A stretch of 38,510 nt of DNA from Verrucomicrobiales bacterium (GTDB lineage: Bacteria; Verrucomicrobiota; Verrucomicrobiia; Verrucomicrobiales; SLCJ01). Positions 3,008 through 38,510 of this stretch are shown here, piece after piece. The DNA lies in contig JBJTQJ010000073.1 in NCBI GenBank assembly GCA_046075565.1, forward strand, positions 1-38,510. Direction: 5' to 3'. Position numbers and translations under genes: made by a program. Within the stretch, counting starts at the first letter, position 1; the number at the start of each line of letters is the position of its first letter. The notes under the pieces were generated by a model. The model was not told the origin of the DNA and did not search any database. It was given only the letters and a program-made list of their open reading frames with translations.

Positions 3008-3921
3008 ATGCGCTTTCCATGTCTGGTCCTGCTGGCTCGGCGCCGCTTGTTAGCGTCCTCATTCCCACGTTCAACCACGAACGGTTTCTGGCCCGGGCCA
3101 TCGAAAGCGCGTTGGCTCAGATCACCGACTTTCGCGTTGAAATCCTCGTTGGCAATGATGCTTCCACGGACAACACCGGAAATATCCTCAAGGATTTGGC
3201 ATCCCGTCATCCCGACCGCATCCGCGCCTTCCATGCCGAGACCAATGCCGGCGGCCACGCCAACTTCTCGCAACTCTACGCCGCCGCCCATGGCCAATAT
3301 ATCGCCCTGCTGGAAGGCGATGACTATTGGACCGACCCCGGCAAACTCCAGACCCAGATCGATCATCTCGCGGTTCATCCCGAATGCTCGCTCTGTTTCC
3401 ACCAAGTGGAAATACGCGATGAAATCGGCGACTTGCCCGCGACGATCTCCAACCCCTCCGATCCACTGGTGAGCGGACTCTCCCGCATCACCCGCTTTAA
3501 CTATATCCACACCCCATCGGTTGTCTTCCGCAACCGCCTCATCCCGGGGGTGCCCGCCTGGGTCCATTCTCTGCCCATGGGAGATTGGCCGCTTTTTGTC
3601 CTGCTTGCGGAGCATGGTGAACTGCATCTCATCCGGAAACCCATGGCCGTCTATCGGGTTCAAAGCGGCAGCGTCTGGGCATCGCGCACCCAACTTAGTC
3701 GGCTGGTCAGCACGGTTCATGTCGCCGAAGTCTGCGTCCATCACCTCGGCCATCCCGGTTTCCGGGACTGCATCTTCAAGACCTCCCGCACGATCGCCCG
3801 CATGGCCTTGGCGGAACGCGCTCCCTTCCTCTGGCTCAGGCACGCTATGAAATGCGCGCGCATGATCATCAGCCAACCGGAATTGCGCCGGTCGCTTTTT
3901 TCGCCCGGAAAGAAGGTATGA
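3004..3921 (+). CDS. Glycosyltransferase family 2
   Basis: PLVSVLIPTFNHE, NDASTDNT, YIALLEGDDYW, GDW motifs. Confidence 0.92.
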   Translation: MNALSMSGPAGSAPLVSVLIPTFNHERFLARAIESALAQITDFRVEILVGNDASTDNTGNILKDLASRHPDRIRAFHAETNAGGHANFSQLYAAAHGQYIALLEGDDYWTDPGKLQTQIDHLAVHPECSLCFHQVEIRDEIGDLPATISNPSDPLVSGLSRITRFNYIHTPSVVFRNRLIPGVPAWVHSLPMGDWPLFVLLAEHGELHLIRKPMAVYRVQSGSVWASRTQLSRLVSTVHVAEVCVHHLGHPGFRDCIFKTSRTIARMALAERAPFLWLRHAMKCARMIISQPELRRSLFSPGKKV

Positions 3922-3991
3922 CCCCGGGCAAATTGACCGAGAGAGGCGACGCCAGAATCAAGTTCCTTCGAACCGAACCTCCCAAAGCCTG

Positions 3992-4464
3992 TTATGCTTG
4001 CCCGGGTTCGTGTCGTAGCGGGAGGACACAATCCATCATGAGAAACTCTCCGGCCTCCCCGGTTGCGCGGAAGCCAACTCTCTCGTAGAGGCTCCCGGCA
4101 GCCTTGTTGGTTTTGGCAACCTCGAGGGTGATACGACCGACTCCTCTCAAGATTGCGGCTTCAATACACCGCTGCAAAAGAACGGATCAATCCCCCTTCC
4201 GACATGCCCGACGGTCACGGAGATGTTGGAAATGTGCGCCGAAGGCTGGTTCTCCATGCCGAAGTAGACAGCGACCAGACCAACCAAACTTTCGTCGGAC
4301 CAAGCCTCGAATCGTGTGGACTTCACCGCGATCTTCCGGGCGTATTCCGCCCTCTCCACGCGACTGTCCAATAGGCGGATAAACTCCGGATCACAACGGG
4401 CGAAATGGTCAATGACGGCGGTTGTATCCGCCGTGTCCGTATCATATCGAAGATCCTCTTTCAT
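3992..4464 (-). pseudogene. GNAT N-acetyltransferase, frameshifted at ~4187
   Basis: MKEDL...HISNISV...GRGI continues in the -1 frame as SVLLQRCIEAA...ITLEVAKTNKAAGSLYERVGF; one base missing in ATT GA TCC. Confidence 0.8.
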
Positions 4465-32166: not shown

Positions 32167-33708
32167 TTAGAATTGGAAATAGATGAAATCGCTGCCCACC
32201 TGCGAAGAGAGGGTCAGGATCACGAGGATGAAAAGCGCGGCCACGGTGGCGTCGATGATGACCCGCGGCCAACCATCGGCGGCGGGCAGGCGCCGCCAGT
32301 CCTCGCCGAAAATTTTCTCCGCGAAAGGCAGCAACCAGAGCGGCAGCGAATAGAGGAAGACCTGGGCCGCGACATAGACACCGGTGCGCCACATGTTCGG
32401 CGAGGCGATGAAGGCATTGAGGGTGAACGATCGCCAGAGCTGCGTGAGATTCTGTTCGCGGAAGATCAACCACGCCACATGCACGAGCACGAAGGTCGCG
32501 CCCCAGCGGAGGAACGAGCCCGCTTTGCCACCGCCATGGGCGAGGGCGGGGGACTTGGTTTCGGCAAAATGCCAGCCCGCGACGAGCAGTCCGTGGAATA
32601 AACCCCAGAAGACGAAATTCCAGTTCGCGCCGTGCCAGAGGCCGGAAAGACCGAAGGTGAACAGGATATTGCGGGTCACCCGGGCACCGGAGCCGCGGTT
32701 TCCTCCCAGCGGGATGTAAATGTAGTCGCGGAACCAGGTGGAGAGGGAAATATGCCACCGCCGCCAGAAGTCGGCTGGATTGGCCGCGAGATAGGGATGG
32801 CGGAAGTTGTGGCAGATCTCGATGCCTAACAAACGTGCTGAACCCCGGGCGATATTCGTGTAAGCGGAGAAATCGGCGTAGATCTGCACACCGAAGGCGA
32901 ACACTCCCGCCCAGAGGATGGGGAAGCTGTTTTGTTCGATGGCGAAGACCTTGTTGGCCAGCACGGCGCAGTTGTCGGCGATAACCCGTTTGAGCAGCAA
33001 ACCCCAGAGGATGAGCACCAGTCCCGAGCGGATGGCTTTGGTATCGAACTTCCGGTCCGCCTCGAGTTGGGAGAGCAGATGCCCGGCGCGTTCGATCGGC
33101 CCGGCCACCAACTGCGGGAAAAAGCTCACGAAAAGCGCGTAGTCGAAAAGGTTTTTCCTCGCCGCCGTTTGCCCGCGATAGACATCGATCACGTAGGACG
33201 CGCTCTGGAAGGTGTAGAACGAAATGCCGACCGGCAAGAGGACCTGCCAGTGCGGGCCCTCGAGTTTCCAACCCGCCGCGTTGGCCAGGGCCAGCACGTT
33301 GTCCATGAAAAAGCCGAAATACTTGAAGACGGCGAGGATGGAGAAATTGACCGCGAGGCTGAGGGCGGCGAAGCGCTTCTTCCGATCCGGACGGCGGGTC
33401 AGTCCGCGCGCGCAGGCCCAGTCAACGGTCGTGGTCAGGGCGATGAGCAGGGCATACCACGGGTGGATGTAGGCGTAGAAAAAGTAACTCGCCACCAGGA
33501 GCATCAGGTTGCCCGGCCGGGCCATCGGCCAGCGGATCTCCGCCAGGACAACCAAGCCCGCCACCGTCGCCGGGATCACCTGCCCGTGCCAGGCCATGAA
33601 TCCCGCGAAGGCCAGCGTAATGATCCTCTGCACTCCCCGCGGCGCCAACCAGTAGACCGCGAACACGGCCAGCAAGAAAACAAGATAGTCGGTGCTCTGG
33701 AAAACCAT
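32167..33708 (-). CDS. MBOAT O-acyltransferase (AlgI/DltB-like)
   Basis: LPVGISFYTFQ, FFPQLVAGPIER, QIYADFSAY, FWRRWHISLSTWFRDYIYIPLGG, GLWHGANW. Confidence 0.95.
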   Translation of the reverse strand: MVFQSTDYLVFLLAVFAVYWLAPRGVQRIITLAFAGFMAWHGQVIPATVAGLVVLAEIRWPMARPGNLMLLVASYFFYAYIHPWYALLIALTTTVDWACARGLTRRPDRKKRFAALSLAVNFSILAVFKYFGFFMDNVLALANAAGWKLEGPHWQVLLPVGISFYTFQSASYVIDVYRGQTAARKNLFDYALFVSFFPQLVAGPIERAGHLLSQLEADRKFDTKAIRSGLVLILWGLLLKRVIADNCAVLANKVFAIEQNSFPILWAGVFAFGVQIYADFSAYTNIARGSARLLGIEICHNFRHPYLAANPADFWRRWHISLSTWFRDYIYIPLGGNRGSGARVTRNILFTFGLSGLWHGANWNFVFWGLFHGLLVAGWHFAETKSPALAHGGGKAGSFLRWGATFVLVHVAWLIFREQNLTQLWRSFTLNAFIASPNMWRTGVYVAAQVFLYSLPLWLLPFAEKIFGEDWRRLPAADGWPRVIIDATVAALFILVILTLSSQVGSDFIYFQF

Positions 33709-33784
33709 CGGGTTGCGGTGGCCAATCAGTAACGCCGACCCGCTGGCCCCGCAATCCCAACCTTGGGGGGCGCCCTGCGGGAAA

Positions 33785-34137
33785 GACCGGAAAATGAGAA
33801 CCACGGATGCCGCCCTCCGCCGCCCTGCGGGCTATGAAGGGCGAATGGATGGGAAAGGATTTTGAAAAGAATTCTGTGGGCGGATTGGATAAACGCACGG
33901 GTGAAGAAATCTTCTTTTCCAACCTCCTCCGTATCCGCTTTGCCTGATCGATCGCGGCTTCCGATTCCCGAATTCGGGCTTAAGCCCGGACTCCAACCCC
34001 TGAGCCACCTCATCCGGGAAAGGGAGCGCGGGCGTCCTCGCCCGCGAACAGGCCATTCCGAAAGACGACCAATCAGCAGATGACGTGTCTCCTCCCCGCT
34101 GCATCCCCGTTGGAGTTCGGGCTTTCAGCCCGTTCTG
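33785..34137 (+). repeat. ~350-bp direct repeat, copy 1 (REP mosaic)
   Basis: Aligns at offset 2198 with 35983-36335, about 15 mismatches over the 339-bp core by manual count. Confidence 0.95.
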
Positions 34138-34174
34138 ACCGCCGCCCTCCGCCACCATCAAATGGTTCATATTG

Positions 34175-34305
34175 CGCCATATATGACGTATAAATCCCAG
34201 ATATTGCCTATAGATTGCCACTTCTGACGCTTAAATAAATATCCTACAAAGCGTCTTCTATGGCGTTTTATATTGACAATGACCGATAATACGCCATTTT
34301 AGGCG
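34175..34305 (+). promoter_or_regulatory. hipBA promoter/operator region
   Basis: Four imperfect palindromes YGCCA-N4-WGRCG at 34175, 34216, 34252 (reverse), 34292; TTGACA at 34273 and CATTTT at 34295. Confidence 0.6.
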
Positions 34306-34308
34306 TGT

Positions 34309-34662
34309 ATGAAGATCGACTCCAAGCTGACCGACGAAGCGCTCTTGCGGCTGGTCGGGGAACGCTTGGCCGGGGTCCGGCTGGCGCGTAACTTGACGCA
34401 GCAACAGCTGGCGGAAGAGGCCGGACTCGGCCTGCGGACGGTCCAGCGGCTGGAACTGGGTGCCGCGGCGACGCAGTTGTCGGGATTTATCCGCGTGTGC
34501 CGGGTGCTCGGCCTGGTGGAGAATCTCGAGGCATTCATTCCGCAGCCGGCGGTCAGCCCGATGGAGCAATTGAAGCAGGCGGGCCGGAAGCGCCAGCGGG
34601 CGACGGGCCGGAAAGCGGCGACGGGCGGGTCGAAAAAATGGACGTGGGGTGAGCCGTCATGA
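34309..34662 (+). CDS. XRE-family HTH antitoxin (HipB-like)
   Basis: GERLAGVRLARNLTQQQLAEEAGLGLRTVQRLELG; ATGA overlap with hipA. Confidence 0.88.
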   Translation: MKIDSKLTDEALLRLVGERLAGVRLARNLTQQQLAEEAGLGLRTVQRLELGAAATQLSGFIRVCRVLGLVENLEAFIPQPAVSPMEQLKQAGRKRQRATGRKAATGGSKKWTWGEPS

Positions 34663-35963
34663 TCGCGAAGGTCCAACTCTGGGGCCGGACGATCGGCGCG
34701 GTGTCGCTCGACGAAGGTCGCGAGATCGCGGCATTCCAATACGATGCGGACTTCGCGCGCAGCGGGATCGAGCTATCGCCGCTGGTCATGCCGCTGAACG
34801 AGCGGGTCTATGAATTTCCCGCGCTGCCCCGGAACACCTTCCACGGCCTGCCGGGGCTGCTGGCGGATTCGCTGCCCGACAAGTTCGGCAACGCATTGAT
34901 CGACGCATGGCTGGCCACGCAAGGCCGCACGCCGGAAAGTTTCCATGCGGTGGAGCGGCTCTGTTACACCGGCACGCGCGGCATGGGCGCGTTGGAGTTC
35001 GCGCCGGTGATGGGACCAAGACCGCGCCAGGCATCGAAGATCGAAGTGGACGCGCTGGTGCGATTGGCCGGAGAGGTGCTCACGCATCGAGGCGATTTGC
35101 AGGGTCATTTTCACGAAGCCGGAAGGAAGCAGGCGCTGCGGGATATCTTGAGCGTGGGCACTTCCGCCGGCGGCGCGCGGGCCAAGGCGGTGATCGCGTG
35201 GAATCGCGCGACGAACGAAGTGCGCTCCGGGCAGATCGCGGCGGGCGAGGGATTCGAATACTGGCTGCTGAAATTCGACGGCGTGGCCGGCAACAAGGAC
35301 AAGGAACTGGAAGACCCGAAAGGTTACGGGGCCATCGAGTATGCCTATCACCTCATGGCGAGGGCGGCGGGCATCACGATGAGCGAGTGCCGGTTGTTGG
35401 AGGAAAATGGGCGGCGTCATTTCATGACCCGCCGCTTTGATCGCCTGGCGGGCGGGGCGAAGCTGCACATGCAGTCGCTCTGCGCGCTGGCGCATTTCGA
35501 TTTCAACCAGGCCGGAGCCTACAGCTACGAGCAGGCGCTGCTCACCATCCGCCAGTTCGAGCTACCGATGGCGGCGGTGGAGGAACAGTTCCGCCGCATG
35601 GTCTTCAACATCGTGGCGCGGAATCAGGATGACCATGTGAAGAACATCGCCTTTCTCATGAACCAGCAAGGCGAGTGGTCGCTCGCGCCGGCCTTCGACG
35701 TGACCTACAGCTACAATCCATCCGGCTCATGGACCGCGACCCATCAGATGACGCTGAATGGGAAACGGGACGGATTCACGCTCGCGGATTTCGAGGCCTG
35801 CGCGAAGGCGGCAATGATGAAGCGCGGCCGGGCCGGAATGATCATCGGGGAGGTGCTGGCCGCGGTAAACCGCTGGCCGGAGTTTGCAGCCCAAGCACAG
35901 CTCTCGGATAAATGGCGAAACCAAATCGGAAAGATGCACCGGCTGACTTTCCCTGAAAAGTGA
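34659..35963 (+). CDS. hipA: HipA-family Ser/Thr kinase toxin
   Basis: N-terminal couple domain (LWGRTIG, FQY, DSLPDKFG), SAGGARAK P-loop, LLKFD, RFDR, NQDDHVKN, LAPAFDV. Confidence 0.93.
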   Translation: MIAKVQLWGRTIGAVSLDEGREIAAFQYDADFARSGIELSPLVMPLNERVYEFPALPRNTFHGLPGLLADSLPDKFGNALIDAWLATQGRTPESFHAVERLCYTGTRGMGALEFAPVMGPRPRQASKIEVDALVRLAGEVLTHRGDLQGHFHEAGRKQALRDILSVGTSAGGARAKAVIAWNRATNEVRSGQIAAGEGFEYWLLKFDGVAGNKDKELEDPKGYGAIEYAYHLMARAAGITMSECRLLEENGRRHFMTRRFDRLAGGAKLHMQSLCALAHFDFNQAGAYSYEQALLTIRQFELPMAAVEEQFRRMVFNIVARNQDDHVKNIAFLMNQQGEWSLAPAFDVTYSYNPSGSWTATHQMTLNGKRDGFTLADFEACAKAAMMKRGRAGMIIGEVLAAVNRWPEFAAQAQLSDKWRNQIGKMHRLTFPEK

Positions 35964-35982
35964 GCGCCCATTAGTATGGGCC

Positions 35983-36335
35983 GACCGGGAATGCAAAACC
36001 ACGGATGCCGCCCTCCGCCGCCCTGCGGGCCATGAAGGGCGAATGGATGGGAAAGGATTTTGAACAGAATTCTATTGGCGGATTGGATAAACGCACGGGT
36101 GAAGAAATCTTCTTTTCCAACCTCCTCCGTATCCGCTTTGCCTGATCGATCGTGGCTTCCGATTCCCGAATTCGGGCTTAAGCCCGGACTCCAACCCCTG
36201 AGCCACCTCATCCGGGAAAGGGAGCGCGGGCGTCCTCGCCCGCGAACAGGCTATCCAGCGAGGTGACCAATCAGCAAATGACGTGTCTCCTCCCTGCTGC
36301 ATCCCCGTTGGAGTTCGGGCTTTTAGCCCGTTCTG
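35983..36335 (+). repeat. ~350-bp direct repeat, copy 2 (REP mosaic)
   Basis: Matches 33785-34137; followed by a third partial copy of its 5' end at 36339-36378. Confidence 0.95.
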
Positions 36336-36596
36336 GCAACCGGGAAAGGAAAACCACGGACATCGCCCTCGCCCGCCCAAGAAAAAATTCTTGGTCTTTT
36401 CGCCCCGAAATCGTCGGGGGAGGCTTGCAGTCTGGCGTCTTCTAGTGTCTAACTGACTCAGTTGTCGCATTTCCGATTCTCCATGCCTGCCCGTGGCAAA
36501 GCTTCCTCACCCAAAGACTCGGCCGCCAACCTCGGCTTCGAGGCCAAGCTCTGGCTCGCCGCCGACAAGCTCCGTAACAACATGGACGCGGCGGAG

Positions 36597-36662
36597 CCGA
36601 GCGGAGCGAGACAGCCTGCCCGACAGGGCAGCCCGAAGGGGCAGCGCGGGGGCGCTGAGCAA
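36597..36662 (+). repeat. 66-bp in-frame multi-hairpin insert in hsdM
   Basis: Splits MDAAE|YKHVV; stems ctgccc/gggcag, ccc/ggg, cagcgc/gcgctg. Confidence 0.8.
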
Positions 36663-37015
36663 TACAAGCACGTCGTCCTCGGCCTCATCTTCCTCAAATA
36701 CATCTCCGACACCTTCGAGGAACACCGGGAAAAACTCATCGCTGGCGAGGGCGACTACGCCGGGGCCAATCCCGAGGACCCGGACGAATACAAGGCCGAG
36801 AACGTCTTCTGGGTGCCCGCCGATGCCCGCTGGTCCCACCTCCAGGCCAGCGCCAAGCAGCCCACCATCGGCAAGACCGTGGACGACGCCATGGTCGCCA
36901 TCGAGCGCGACAACCCGCGCCTCAAAGGCGTCCTGCCCAAAGACTACGCCCGCCCCGGCCTCGACAAGCACCGCCTCGGCGAACTCATCGACCTCATCGG
37001 GACGATCGCCCTCGC

Positions 37016-37090
37016 CTGTAGCGGCGGTCTGCGACCGTCGCACGATGCCAATGAAGAGGAATCAGCGACGGTCACAGAACGCCGCTACAG
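37016..37090. repeat. REP doublet (REPIN-like) inside hsdM
   Basis: 26-nt inverted arms 37016-37041 and 37065-37090 (24/26 match), each with GTAG at the outer end. Confidence 0.85.
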
Positions 37091-37268
37091 TTCCCACCGC
37101 TCCGTCGATCTGCTCGGCCGCGTGTATGAGTATTTCCTCACCCGCTTCGCCAGCGCCGAGGGCAAGAACGGCGGCCAGTTCTACACCCCGTCCTGCGTCG
37201 TGCGCTGCCTCGTCGAGATGCTCGCCCCCTACAAAGGCCGCATCTACGACCCCGCCTGCGGCTCCGGC

Positions 37269-37697
37269 GGCAGGGGCGAAGTGGGAAATCAGAATTATGA
37301 AGGAAGACAACGACCTCAAGGACCGCACCAAACAGTTTGCGCTGCGAATCATCCGCCTGTTCGGCAGTCTGCCGAAATCGACGGAAGCTCAGGTGCTGGG
37401 CAAACAACTGCTCCGTTCGGGAACATCCGTCGGGGCGAACTACCGGGAAGCGCATCGTGGACGGAGCAAAGCCGAGTTCATCGCCAAATGCGGCGACTCG
37501 CTCCGGGAACTGGAAGAATCGGCGTATTGGTTGGAGCTGCTTGTCGATGGGGAAATTGTGCCAGCGGCCAAGCTGCAACCACTCCGTGCCGAGTGCGACG
37601 AACTCACCGCCATCTTTGTCACGGTCATCAAACGAGCGAGAGACAGCGCCTGACTCCCTTTCTTCCTTCATCATTCTTCCTTCAAACTTCCCCTGCC
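37269..37697 (+). mobile_element. Inverted-repeat-bounded cassette carrying a four-helix-bundle gene
   Basis: IRs 37269-37307 and 37661-37697 (GGCAGGGG..AAGT..AGAATKATGAAGGAAGA) enclose the ORF; no recombinase visible. Confidence 0.6.
37297..37653 (+). CDS. Four helix bundle protein (23S rRNA IVP / TIGR02436-like), nested in hsdM in another frame
   Basis: [65 protein letters not shown]. Confidence 0.93.
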
Positions 37698-37718
37698 TGG
37701 GTGCAGCACTTCATCCAC

Positions 37719-37748
37719 TGCATCCTCCGTAGCCTTGGCGAAGGGGGA
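37719..37748 (+). repeat. 30-bp in-frame hairpin insert in hsdM
   Basis: Splits QHFIH|HLAP; tcctccgtagccttggcgaaggggga. Confidence 0.75.
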
Positions 37749-38099
37749 CACCTCGCCCCGCAAGGCATGGCCGGCTTCGTCCTCGCCAATGGCAGCATGT
37801 CGTCGAACCAGTCCGGCGAAGGCGACATCCGCCGCGCCCTCATCGAGGCCGACCTCGTGGACTGCATGGTCGCCCTCCCCGGCCAACTCTTCTACAGCAC
37901 GCAGATTCCCGTCTGCCTCTGGTTCCTCGCGAAAAACAAAAACGCCGACACCAAACGCGGCTTCCGCGACCGCCGCCAGCAAATCCTCTTCATCGACGCC
38001 CGCAAACTCGGCACCCTCATCGACCGCGTCCACCGCGAGCTGACCGACGCCGATCTTGAGAAAATCACCGCCACGTATCATGCGTGGAGGGCAGAAAGT

Positions 38100-38174
38100 C
38101 TCACGCAAAGCCGCAAAGTCGCCAAAGTAGGCAATGAATCTTCATCTCTTAGCGCCTTTGCGCCTTTGCGTAAG
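38100..38174. repeat. Octamer-periodic inverted repeat inside hsdM
   Basis: ctcacgcaaagccgcaaagtcgccaaa pairs with cttagcgcctttgcgcctttgcgtaag (22/27). Confidence 0.8.
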
Positions 38175-38397
38175 TATTCCGATGTCCCGGGCTTCTGCAA
38201 ATCCGCCACCACCGCCGAAATCGCCGCCCACGGTCACGTGCTCACGCCCGGCCGCTACGTCGGCGCCGAGGAAGTCGAAGACGACGGCGACCCCTTCGAG
38301 GAAAAGATGCCGCGCCTCGTCGCCGAACTGCACGCCCAGTTCGCCGAGTCCGCGAAACTGGAGCAGGCCATCAAAGCAAACCTGAGGGGGCTGGGTT

Positions 38398-38510
38398 ATG
38401 GCGGGTGAATGGAAAACCATCGCACTAAAAGACATCGCCGAGTCCATTAACACGGGACTAGATGCAATTACTCGCGCCCCGATTGTGTCCTATCCAACTG
38501 AAATCAAGTG
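38398..38510 (+). CDS. hsdS: Type I R-M specificity subunit, N-terminus (partial)
   Basis: [14 protein letters not shown] start overlapping hsdM end; GC content drops as expected for a TRD. Confidence 0.75.

Follow-up and report, generated by a model that had tools for sequence, protein, structure and literature searches.

What becomes of a type I methylase gene once a different gene has taken the place of its catalytic core, and why would its reading frame stay open? The question is raised near the end of the 38,510-nucleotide (nt) stretch of DNA analysed here, from a Verrucomicrobiales bacterium (contig JBJTQJ010000073.1 of assembly GCA_046075565.1; this whole stretch is called the window), in which the hsdM gene is broken off immediately after its S-adenosylmethionine (AdoMet)-binding motif I by 423 nt that hold a complete gene for a four-helix-bundle (4HB) protein. 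Our analysis suggests, with a probability that we put at roughly 60%, that these 423 nt are a selfish cassette of the type of the intervening sequences (IVSs) of ribosomal RNA (rRNA), residing in-frame within a dead carrier gene. What the S23p/4HB genes of rRNA IVSs do and how they move has been a question since their first description, and an element of the same kind in a protein gene lets the sequence by itself show three signals: a 4HB gene under strong purifying selection, a relaxed carrier and the avoidance of stops in the carrier frame. These signals yield a testable model in which expression relies on host translation and the arms of the cassette are where deletions begin.

An hsdM gene without its catalytic core

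A single stop-free frame of 648 codons (36462..38408) runs through the region, and the probable start of hsdM within it, an ATG at 36483, agrees with the N-termini of orthologs. The translation matches the Pfam families HsdM_N (1.6e-22) and N6_Mtase (PF02384; 2.9e-59), the latter split in two pieces. Across the whole 3.9-Mb assembly PF02384 matched only with profile positions 2-59 (37101-37271) and 172-311 (37749-38285), so that positions 60-171 are missing. What belongs there can be read from three intact orthologs (L012, L011 and L009), whose hsdM flanks are 82-89% identical to those of the window and which at this site have GSGG-MFVQSEKF...GQE...NPPF...NANF-AWVQHF; the native segment between GSGG and AWVQHF comprises 100 residues in L012. 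In the window, GSGG (ending at 37271) and AWVQHF (beginning with GCC at 37695) are separated by 423 nt, or 141 codons, of other sequence.

The orthologs carry NPPF (motif IV) and the HsdM of the window does not; the latter scores 70.7 bits against the hsdM equivalog TIGR00497, below the cut-off of 242.75, and has HsdM_N and AdoMet motif I without a full catalytic domain. Because some 100 codons with AdoMet-binding and catalytic motifs have been replaced, this HsdM is predicted to be unable to methylate. The lost core was not found elsewhere in the assembly, either by the PF02384 search or by tblastn and blastn with the native segments (best E 0.059), and the PF02384 search found no further N6_Mtase genes there. 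Methylase_S and HSDR_N also had no match in the assembly, a draft whose marker genes rate 100% complete; as it is in 129 contigs, the missing hsdS and hsdR matches do not show that these genes are absent. The hsdM stop overlaps the next ATG, at 38400. For annotation the locus is a warning: genes that have lost the catalytic core in this way are called full-length type I methylases, and a relative in the databases goes by the name ‘type I restriction enzyme M protein’.

The nested gene and its arms

The frame of the 4HB gene is offset by one base from that of hsdM, whose codons start one base earlier (Table 1). Its product belongs to PF05635 (2.9e-21; 76.1 bits, cut-off 33.8; profile positions 1-103 of 106) and to TIGR02436, ‘four helix bundle protein’ (9.9e-28; 96.5 bits, cut-off 24), in both cases over the full length and above the curated cut-off, and its nearest solved relative is PDB 2RLD (7.7e-24), which was deposited with five chains. 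PADLOC gave no defence-family match for the protein, which is the product of the sole open reading frame (ORF) with a family match in the cassette.

The gene is bracketed by inverted arms of 33 nt (37275-37307 / 37661-37693) that are 79% complementary, and the inner 16-nt arms, which lie over the 4HB ATG, are 88% complementary. On a scoring scheme of our own the arms reach 15.5, more than any of 100 composition-preserving shuffles (maximum 11). In the minimum-free-energy RNA fold (-174.4 kcal/mol, z -2.77), the arms are predicted to close into one long stem that takes in the 4HB AUG; an RNAalifold consensus of 19 cassettes retained the inner 6-bp stem alone. The end of the right arm, ...CTTCCCC(TGCC), recurs in the cassette of the relative G010, where it abuts another hsdM position.

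The outermost pair, GGCAGGGG / CCCCTGCC (37269-37276 / 37690-37697), matches at 8/8 positions. Its left GGCA is made of the hsdM codons GGC GGC A(TG), relatives have GGCATGGG there, and contigs of native alleles in public runs match the window as far as 37272, so part of the perfect outer 8-mer comes from the host. The cassette itself would thus start at about 37273-37276 and end at about 37693-37697, and by eye the junctions share just 1-3 nt with the native gene.

Most of what an earlier note on this DNA had read from the locus is borne out by these results: the 423 nt after motif I with HsdM resuming at AWVQHF, the intact 118-aa 4HB gene in another frame, the roughly 100 aa that normally occupy the site in orthologs, the inner arm over the ATG, a nested start that would be sequestered by pairing, a replacement and not a simple insertion, and a catalytically dead HsdM. 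The note had also let the outer ends of the inverted repeat coincide with the junctions; the arms do bracket the gene, but the left GGCA is the host's. It does not mention the age and spread of the allele or the stop-free run of the host frame through the cassette.

A scan of 36250-38510 for sigma-70-like promoters returned no site with 0.3 expected, which is weak evidence, other promoter types being outside the scan. Rfam gave no match to rRNA families in 33000-38510, its only hits being sub-threshold miRNA-hairpin matches on a palindrome at 37014-37092, and a tRNA scan found no tRNA.

Table 1. Features at and upstream of the chimeric hsdM gene (positions in the window)
Feature	Position	Strand	Remarks
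hsdM 5' part	36483..37271	+	HsdM_N; N6_Mtase 2-59; ends in motif I YDPACGSGG; frame open from 36462
Left arm, purine-rich	37273..37307	+	carries the 4HB start codon (37297-37299); conserved in relatives
Four-helix-bundle (4HB) gene	37297..37653	+	118 aa plus stop; PF05635, TIGR02436, PDB 2RLD
Right arm, pyrimidine-rich	37661..37697	+	inverted repeat; predicted to pair with the left arm in the fold
hsdM 3' part	37695..38408	+	AWVQHF to native stop; N6_Mtase 172-311
Start of next ORF	38400..38510	+	hsdS-like by eye, unconfirmed; ends at contig end
66-nt insert in hsdM	~36595-36660		skipped by relatives
93-nt palindrome in hsdM	~37000-37092		replaces 39 native nt
30-nt insert in hsdM	37718-37747		in-frame
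Palindromic insert in hsdM	~38090-38180		GCAAAG-like repeats
hipB-like helix-turn-helix (HTH) gene	34309-34662		
hipA	34659-35963		HipA_C 9.4e-53

The chimeric allele in other assemblies and in public runs

The joint of hsdM and cassette recurs outside the assembly. In the public run X1, an unbranched 551-nt contig equals window positions 37243-37793 without mismatches or gaps and spans both junctions, at a depth of 10 vs 14.9 for a neighbouring non-hsdM contig; X1 is perhaps the source sample, so this match checks the assembler and not the biology. The biological check comes from independent assemblies, with alignments through both junctions to L026 and L049 (window 37176-38383, 85.1%) and to L028 (37231-37936, 86.8%). 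The chimeric allele with both junctions is present in other Verrucomicrobiota assemblies. It is widespread, and it is old, because synonymous divergence (dS) between cassette alleles amounts to 0.3-0.6 for the flanks and to 0.44-1.3 for the cassette. The two findings that the earlier note had named as fatal to it did not materialise: the NPPF segment is not hidden by a collapsed assembly, as the X1 contig spans the junctions and the segment is not in the assembly, and the case is not an isolated one, many loci having such cassettes inside genes.

Some contigs follow the window as far as 37272 and run on from there into the native MFVQ codons (two in X1, six in X2 and two in X15), which means that intact alleles of relatives co-occur in these waters. 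In X15, an RNA library from another study, one intact-allele contig (record 13) is 100% identical to window 37093-37272 (180 nt), lacks the 93-nt palindrome upstream and has the native core downstream. From its identity we take the hsdM flanks to be very conserved and probably exchanged, and the same contig makes hsdM alleles look mosaic. Four runs showed no inversion, excision or alternative joint of the cassette at the level of contigs, from which rare variants are dropped.

A nested series of deletions around the cassette

We compared 79 loci whose 4HB proteins are 68-97% identical to that of the window (the best 80 of 496 confirmed relatives), with a heuristic choice of flanking ORFs that sometimes took antisense ORFs and with loci lacking a Pfam match counted as unclassified. 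In 15/79 (L026-L032, L034, L036-L040, L044 and L049) the cassette sits inside an hsdM-derived ORF, always on the same strand, and a sixteenth relative, G010, has an hsdM remnant followed by hsdR. The right junctions lie progressively deeper in hsdM, at RLAxRGIEAD (P0004, P0005), VLANPPF (L032), AWVQHF (window, L026, L049, L028, L030, L044), VLANGSM (L027, L029, L031) and GEIR (G010), while left junctions fall at GSGG and at least five hsdM positions further upstream. On sequence comparison, the junctions appear to form a nested deletion series anchored at both cassette ends. Four full-length chimeric ORFs reach the native stop; in L031, L044 and L037 the upstream part of hsdM is only 25-60 codons long, and some alleles have lost the hsdM 3' part, the cassette being kept in both cases.

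Complementary purine-rich left and pyrimidine-rich right arms are the rule, beating all 100 shuffles at 54 of the 78 testable loci. Gene-less solo hairpins with the arms of the cassette also occur, in phase, in the hsdM of relatives, where some replace a few codons; by eye, P0007 and P0008 differ by such a solo hairpin and are otherwise nearly identical. In the database protein P0011 the cassette lies inside a sulfatase gene. About 20/79 loci are in type I restriction-modification (R-M) loci, with the 4HB gene between hsdR and hsdS in L081, L092 and L101, a similar arrangement in L067, L077 and L095, and others beside other restriction genes, which provides a concrete link between the 4HB family and R-M loci. 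In L026, the chimeric gene is followed by an unknown ORF and an hsdS-like ORF (by eye).

Several rearranged or partial forms were seen alongside. In L035 (57-170, 1336-1692) and L037 (19-287, 1330-2048) there are tandem partial cassette copies, with several 4HB 3' portions and right arms repeated head to tail, as fits recombination-prone arms. A metagenome protein of 397 aa, P0001, is one open frame with the cassette and scrambled hsdM segments, NANFAWVQHF standing ahead of FRKDDDVRWQ and FYTPS and several small repeat-derived inserts separating the segments. An element of ~66 nt lies inside the 4HB gene itself in L020 (G010:C3; 2800-3220) and L040 (3001-3420); in G010 it adds a stop, and the 4HB ORF ends at 83 aa, and in L040 the 4HB match continues through it.

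The genome of the window has three other full PF05635 genes, each between inverted arrays of short tandem repeats. All three are intergenic (C15:4529-5325, C58:860-1624 and C118:16471-17176) and the arrays are heptamer-like; on C15 more than 20 GAACATT-type units precede the gene and their complement follows it. Stretches resembling a cassette arm (GAAGGATGAAGG type) occur without a 4HB gene at C13:3512-3550 (a contig end), C15:241-276 and C80:5543-5575, each followed by AAGAC-rich tandem repeats, and could represent either solo arms or simple repeats of a related kind.

Selection on the nested gene and an open carrier frame

The carrier frame runs without a stop through the cassette in 16/16 embedded copies (window included) vs 5/64 other loci, and the third frame was open in 0/13 embedded copies checked. 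When synonymous codons were shuffled within the 4HB genes, the probability of an open carrier frame was 0.003-0.17 per gene (0.036 for the window, with 2.5 stops expected). In a quick IQ-TREE tree with 48/76 inner branches unresolved, the embedded copies all fall in one clade of 23 rows (SH-aLRT 96), whose seven non-embedded members have 0, 0, 1, 1, 4, 5 and 5 stops in the carrier frame. Within the clade the frame is thus open in 16/16 embedded vs 2/7 non-embedded copies; a hand calculation gives ~6e-4, which overstates the case since the rows are related. All distinct junction pairs read from DNA, at least eight, keep both hsdM parts in one phase. This would follow automatically if the deletions were recombination between in-phase arms; otherwise selection is needed.

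Between the window and 12 embedded relatives, the ratio of non-synonymous to synonymous substitution rates (dN/dS) of the 4HB gene is 0.008-0.094 at dS 0.44-1.3, and third positions account for most of its differences (24-51 of 28-76). The peptide that the hsdM frame gives for this stretch is not conserved, dN being far above dS. The dN/dS of the hsdM flanks is 0.20-0.59 between cassette alleles and 0.05-0.23 in comparison with the intact L012. These patterns point to strong purifying selection on the 4HB gene, a relaxed carrier hsdM and a carrier frame that would merely be kept open.

How the cassette may live in its carrier

What we propose on the movement of the cassette and on why the frame is kept open is what we infer from these comparisons. 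The 423-nt insert would be an IVS-type cassette inside hsdM, built as a long terminal hairpin whose loop contains an S23p/PF05635 gene; it would be selfish, spread horizontally and, having no promoter of its own, use the transcription of the carrier ORF and probably its ribosome traffic too. Ribosomes passing through the cassette could prevent polarity, melt the stem over the 4HB AUG, or both, and such a dependence on the transcription and ribosomes of the carrier would let selection keep the frame open though the methylase is dead. Rather than in a clean swap, the catalytic segment may have been lost at the repetitive arms of the hairpin by deletion or recombination, either between two in-phase hairpin elements or through adjacent deletions, the repetitive palindromic arms seeding deletions into the carrier. 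The strongly conserved hsdM flanks would let the cassette spread between genomes by homologous recombination. Of the two origins that the earlier note had offered, the product of recombination between two such elements is plausible but unproven, and agrees with the nested series of deletions and with the solo hairpins without a gene in relatives; the other, an exchangeable cassette, found no support, as neither an inversion nor an alternative joint was seen in the four runs and none of the alleles restores the core.

Several points weigh against our proposal. A simple insertion into a whole hsdM was found in 0/16 loci and 0/13 database proteins, and neither a transposase nor a target duplication is evident at the window's cassette. 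Since a single clade takes in all the embedded copies, inheritance instead of repeated selection could explain part of the openness of the frame, and the counts are not independent. At a dN/dS of 0.2-0.6 the flanks are not evolving neutrally, so that some residual function of the protein is conceivable. Close-range covariation in the arms is weak, with compensatory changes at only 2/53 consensus pairs in the RNAalifold analysis, in which the outer arms, set apart by indels, could be aligned only poorly. The polarity argument lacks a foothold in this assembly, where neither hsdS nor hsdR was found. Finally, metatranscriptome contigs from X15 and X16 give no cover over 37336-37705; the sampled words in these runs derive from the hsdM flanks of relatives with intact alleles.

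The simplest competitor is an ordinary decaying pseudogene, in which one hit by a repeat-flanked gene was followed by a deletion and the frame is open through GC-richness and recency. It would account for the raised dN/dS of the flanks, for an hsdM full of small repeat inserts, for another hsdM frame that is also open (36493..37653, 386 codons) and for the confinement of embedded copies to one clade. Recency, however, is hard to reconcile with the dS values of the allele (0.3-0.6 in the flanks, 0.44-1.3 in the cassette), at which four chimeric ORFs are still full-length, and chance openness with the shuffle probabilities of 0.003-0.17 per gene, with the 1-5 stops of non-embedded clade members (two of seven have 0) and with the common phase of at least eight distinct junction pairs. 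We consider simple decay unlikely.

Alternatively, the chimeric HsdM could itself be functional, for example as a non-catalytic scaffold or regulator that still binds HsdS/HsdR, the arginine-rich read-through of 141 residues serving as a linker; the cassette region would then code in two frames. The ORF is whole to its native stop and overlaps the next start, its N- and C-terminal parts have a dN/dS of 0.2-0.5 and not 1, and an hsdS-like ORF (by eye) lies downstream in L026. A working protein is nevertheless quite improbable: the protein lacks half of the Rossmann core, the read-through peptide shows no conservation (dN far above dS), the cassette is retained where the upstream hsdM is down to 25-60 codons (L031, L044, L037) or the 3' part is lost, and one copy has a sulfatase carrier.

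That the insert is removable or switchable, DNA inversion or excision, or excision of the hairpin from RNA, restoring or phase-varying HsdM, would suit the long terminal inverted repeats and the excision of IVS hairpins from rRNA by RNase III, as described in the part of the Coxiella study drawn on here (PMC4990558). We give this very little credence, since the 100-residue core is absent from gene and assembly and removal could not restore the methylase; moreover, the contigs of the four runs, from which rare variants are dropped, show no joint of a strand change or excision, and RNase III excision does not religate. An assembly artefact, by collapse over two cassette copies or a chimeric join, is conceivable in a draft of 129 contigs and a window that ends just past the gene, but is barely credible given the unbranched 551-nt X1 contig (depth 10, 0 mismatches; maybe the source sample, but a different assembler) and the three other assemblies that share both junctions.

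The preferred reading, a selfish IVS-type cassette in a dead carrier, has a bolder extension, which we hold to be speculative and rather doubtful: a lineage of IVS-type elements specialised to ORFs, above all hsdM, that kills methylase and restriction, spreads by recombination in the flanks and has synonymous sites tuned for read-through, the carrier supplying promoter, polarity protection and unmasking of the 4HB start. If true, it would be the first ORF-dwelling relative of rRNA intervening sequences, and an anti-restriction element of a gene-conversion type.

Neighbouring repeats and modules

The hsdM gene of the window contains four further small inserts, all in phase and stop-free (Table 1). 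The arms of the 93-nt palindrome (37016-37092) start with GTAG, recur at 92-97% identity on contigs C52, C119, C38, C106, C104, C21 and C3, and resemble GTAG-tagged repetitive extragenic palindromic (REP) repeats; the core of the 30-nt insert has six exact recurrences on four contigs. Upstream of hsdM, a 300-nt direct repeat (33785-34084 / 35983-36282, 94% identical) surrounds the hipB-like HTH gene and hipA, and this toxin-antitoxin pair looks like an inserted module.

Comparison with known systems

The closest likeness is to the IVSs with S23p/PF05635 genes, reported from Coxiella burnetii, Leptospira and others. In the portion of the Coxiella study used here, the 23S rRNA IVS is 428 nt long, has a terminal inverted-repeat stem of 28 bp, and carries an AG-rich stretch and heptamer repeats ahead of the S23p ATG; RNase III cuts the IVS hairpins out of rRNA, mobility is still only hypothesised, and for the Coxiella S23p ORF decay and a probable lack of translation are reported (PMC4990558). 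As far as that portion allows a comparison, the hsdM cassettes agree in element size (423-429 nt vs 428 nt), in the terminal stem (33-nt arms vs 28 bp) that closes around the ORF, in an AG-rich 5' arm with short tandem repeats beside the ATG, in a 4HB ORF in the loop, and in a start region within or beside the stem. They differ in their host, an hsdM ORF instead of helix 25/45 of 23S rRNA, and in a cassette ORF under strong purifying selection where the Coxiella ORF is reported to decay. The cassettes are also in phase with a host ORF whose frame is stop-free.

Rickettsia palindromic elements are in-frame palindromic repeats within protein genes, and share with the cassette the feature of palindromic selfish DNA that lies in phase inside ORFs and leaves the host frame open; the gene-less solo hairpins with cassette arms in the hsdM of relatives are a further likeness. 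The cassette is in phase and stop-free in its host ORF as well, but it is neither short nor gene-less: it has its own conserved gene in another frame, and it goes with the loss of a host segment and, as predicted, of the host enzyme's function. Nor does it resemble a transposon or insertion sequence, with no transposase gene and no target-site duplication found.

The 4HB protein is in the same fold family as Avd, the accessory protein of diversity-generating retroelements (DGRs), and PF05635 is the commonest Pfam family beside DGR reverse transcriptases in the part of the survey consulted (PMC10053308). Hairpin arms and an hsdM carrier are features of the cassette and not of DGRs, and beside the window's copy neither a reverse transcriptase nor a template/variable repeat pair was seen, no search aimed at them having been made. 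Just downstream of the hsdM-embedded cassette of L039 there is an ORF (3585-4265) with a near-threshold match to RVT_1 (29.3 bits vs 29.6), a possible link to the DGR/Avd context of the 4HB family.

PF05635 genes have also been listed in cas loci, 18 of them in the material seen, for example between cmr3 and cmr2 (PMC3936711). The presence of 4HB genes in defence operons is common to both settings (here ~20/79 loci in type I R-M loci), but the cas-locus genes are separate genes between operon genes and not nested in ORFs, and hairpin arms or an open carrier frame do not figure in the published description to the extent drawn on here. Full-text searches turned up neither a PF05635 cassette nested within hsdM nor stop-free carrier frames, subscription journals being outside their coverage. 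Measured against IVSs as set out in the portion of the published account used here, what is new in the cassette of the window and its relatives is in-phase nesting in a protein gene and a host frame free of stops.

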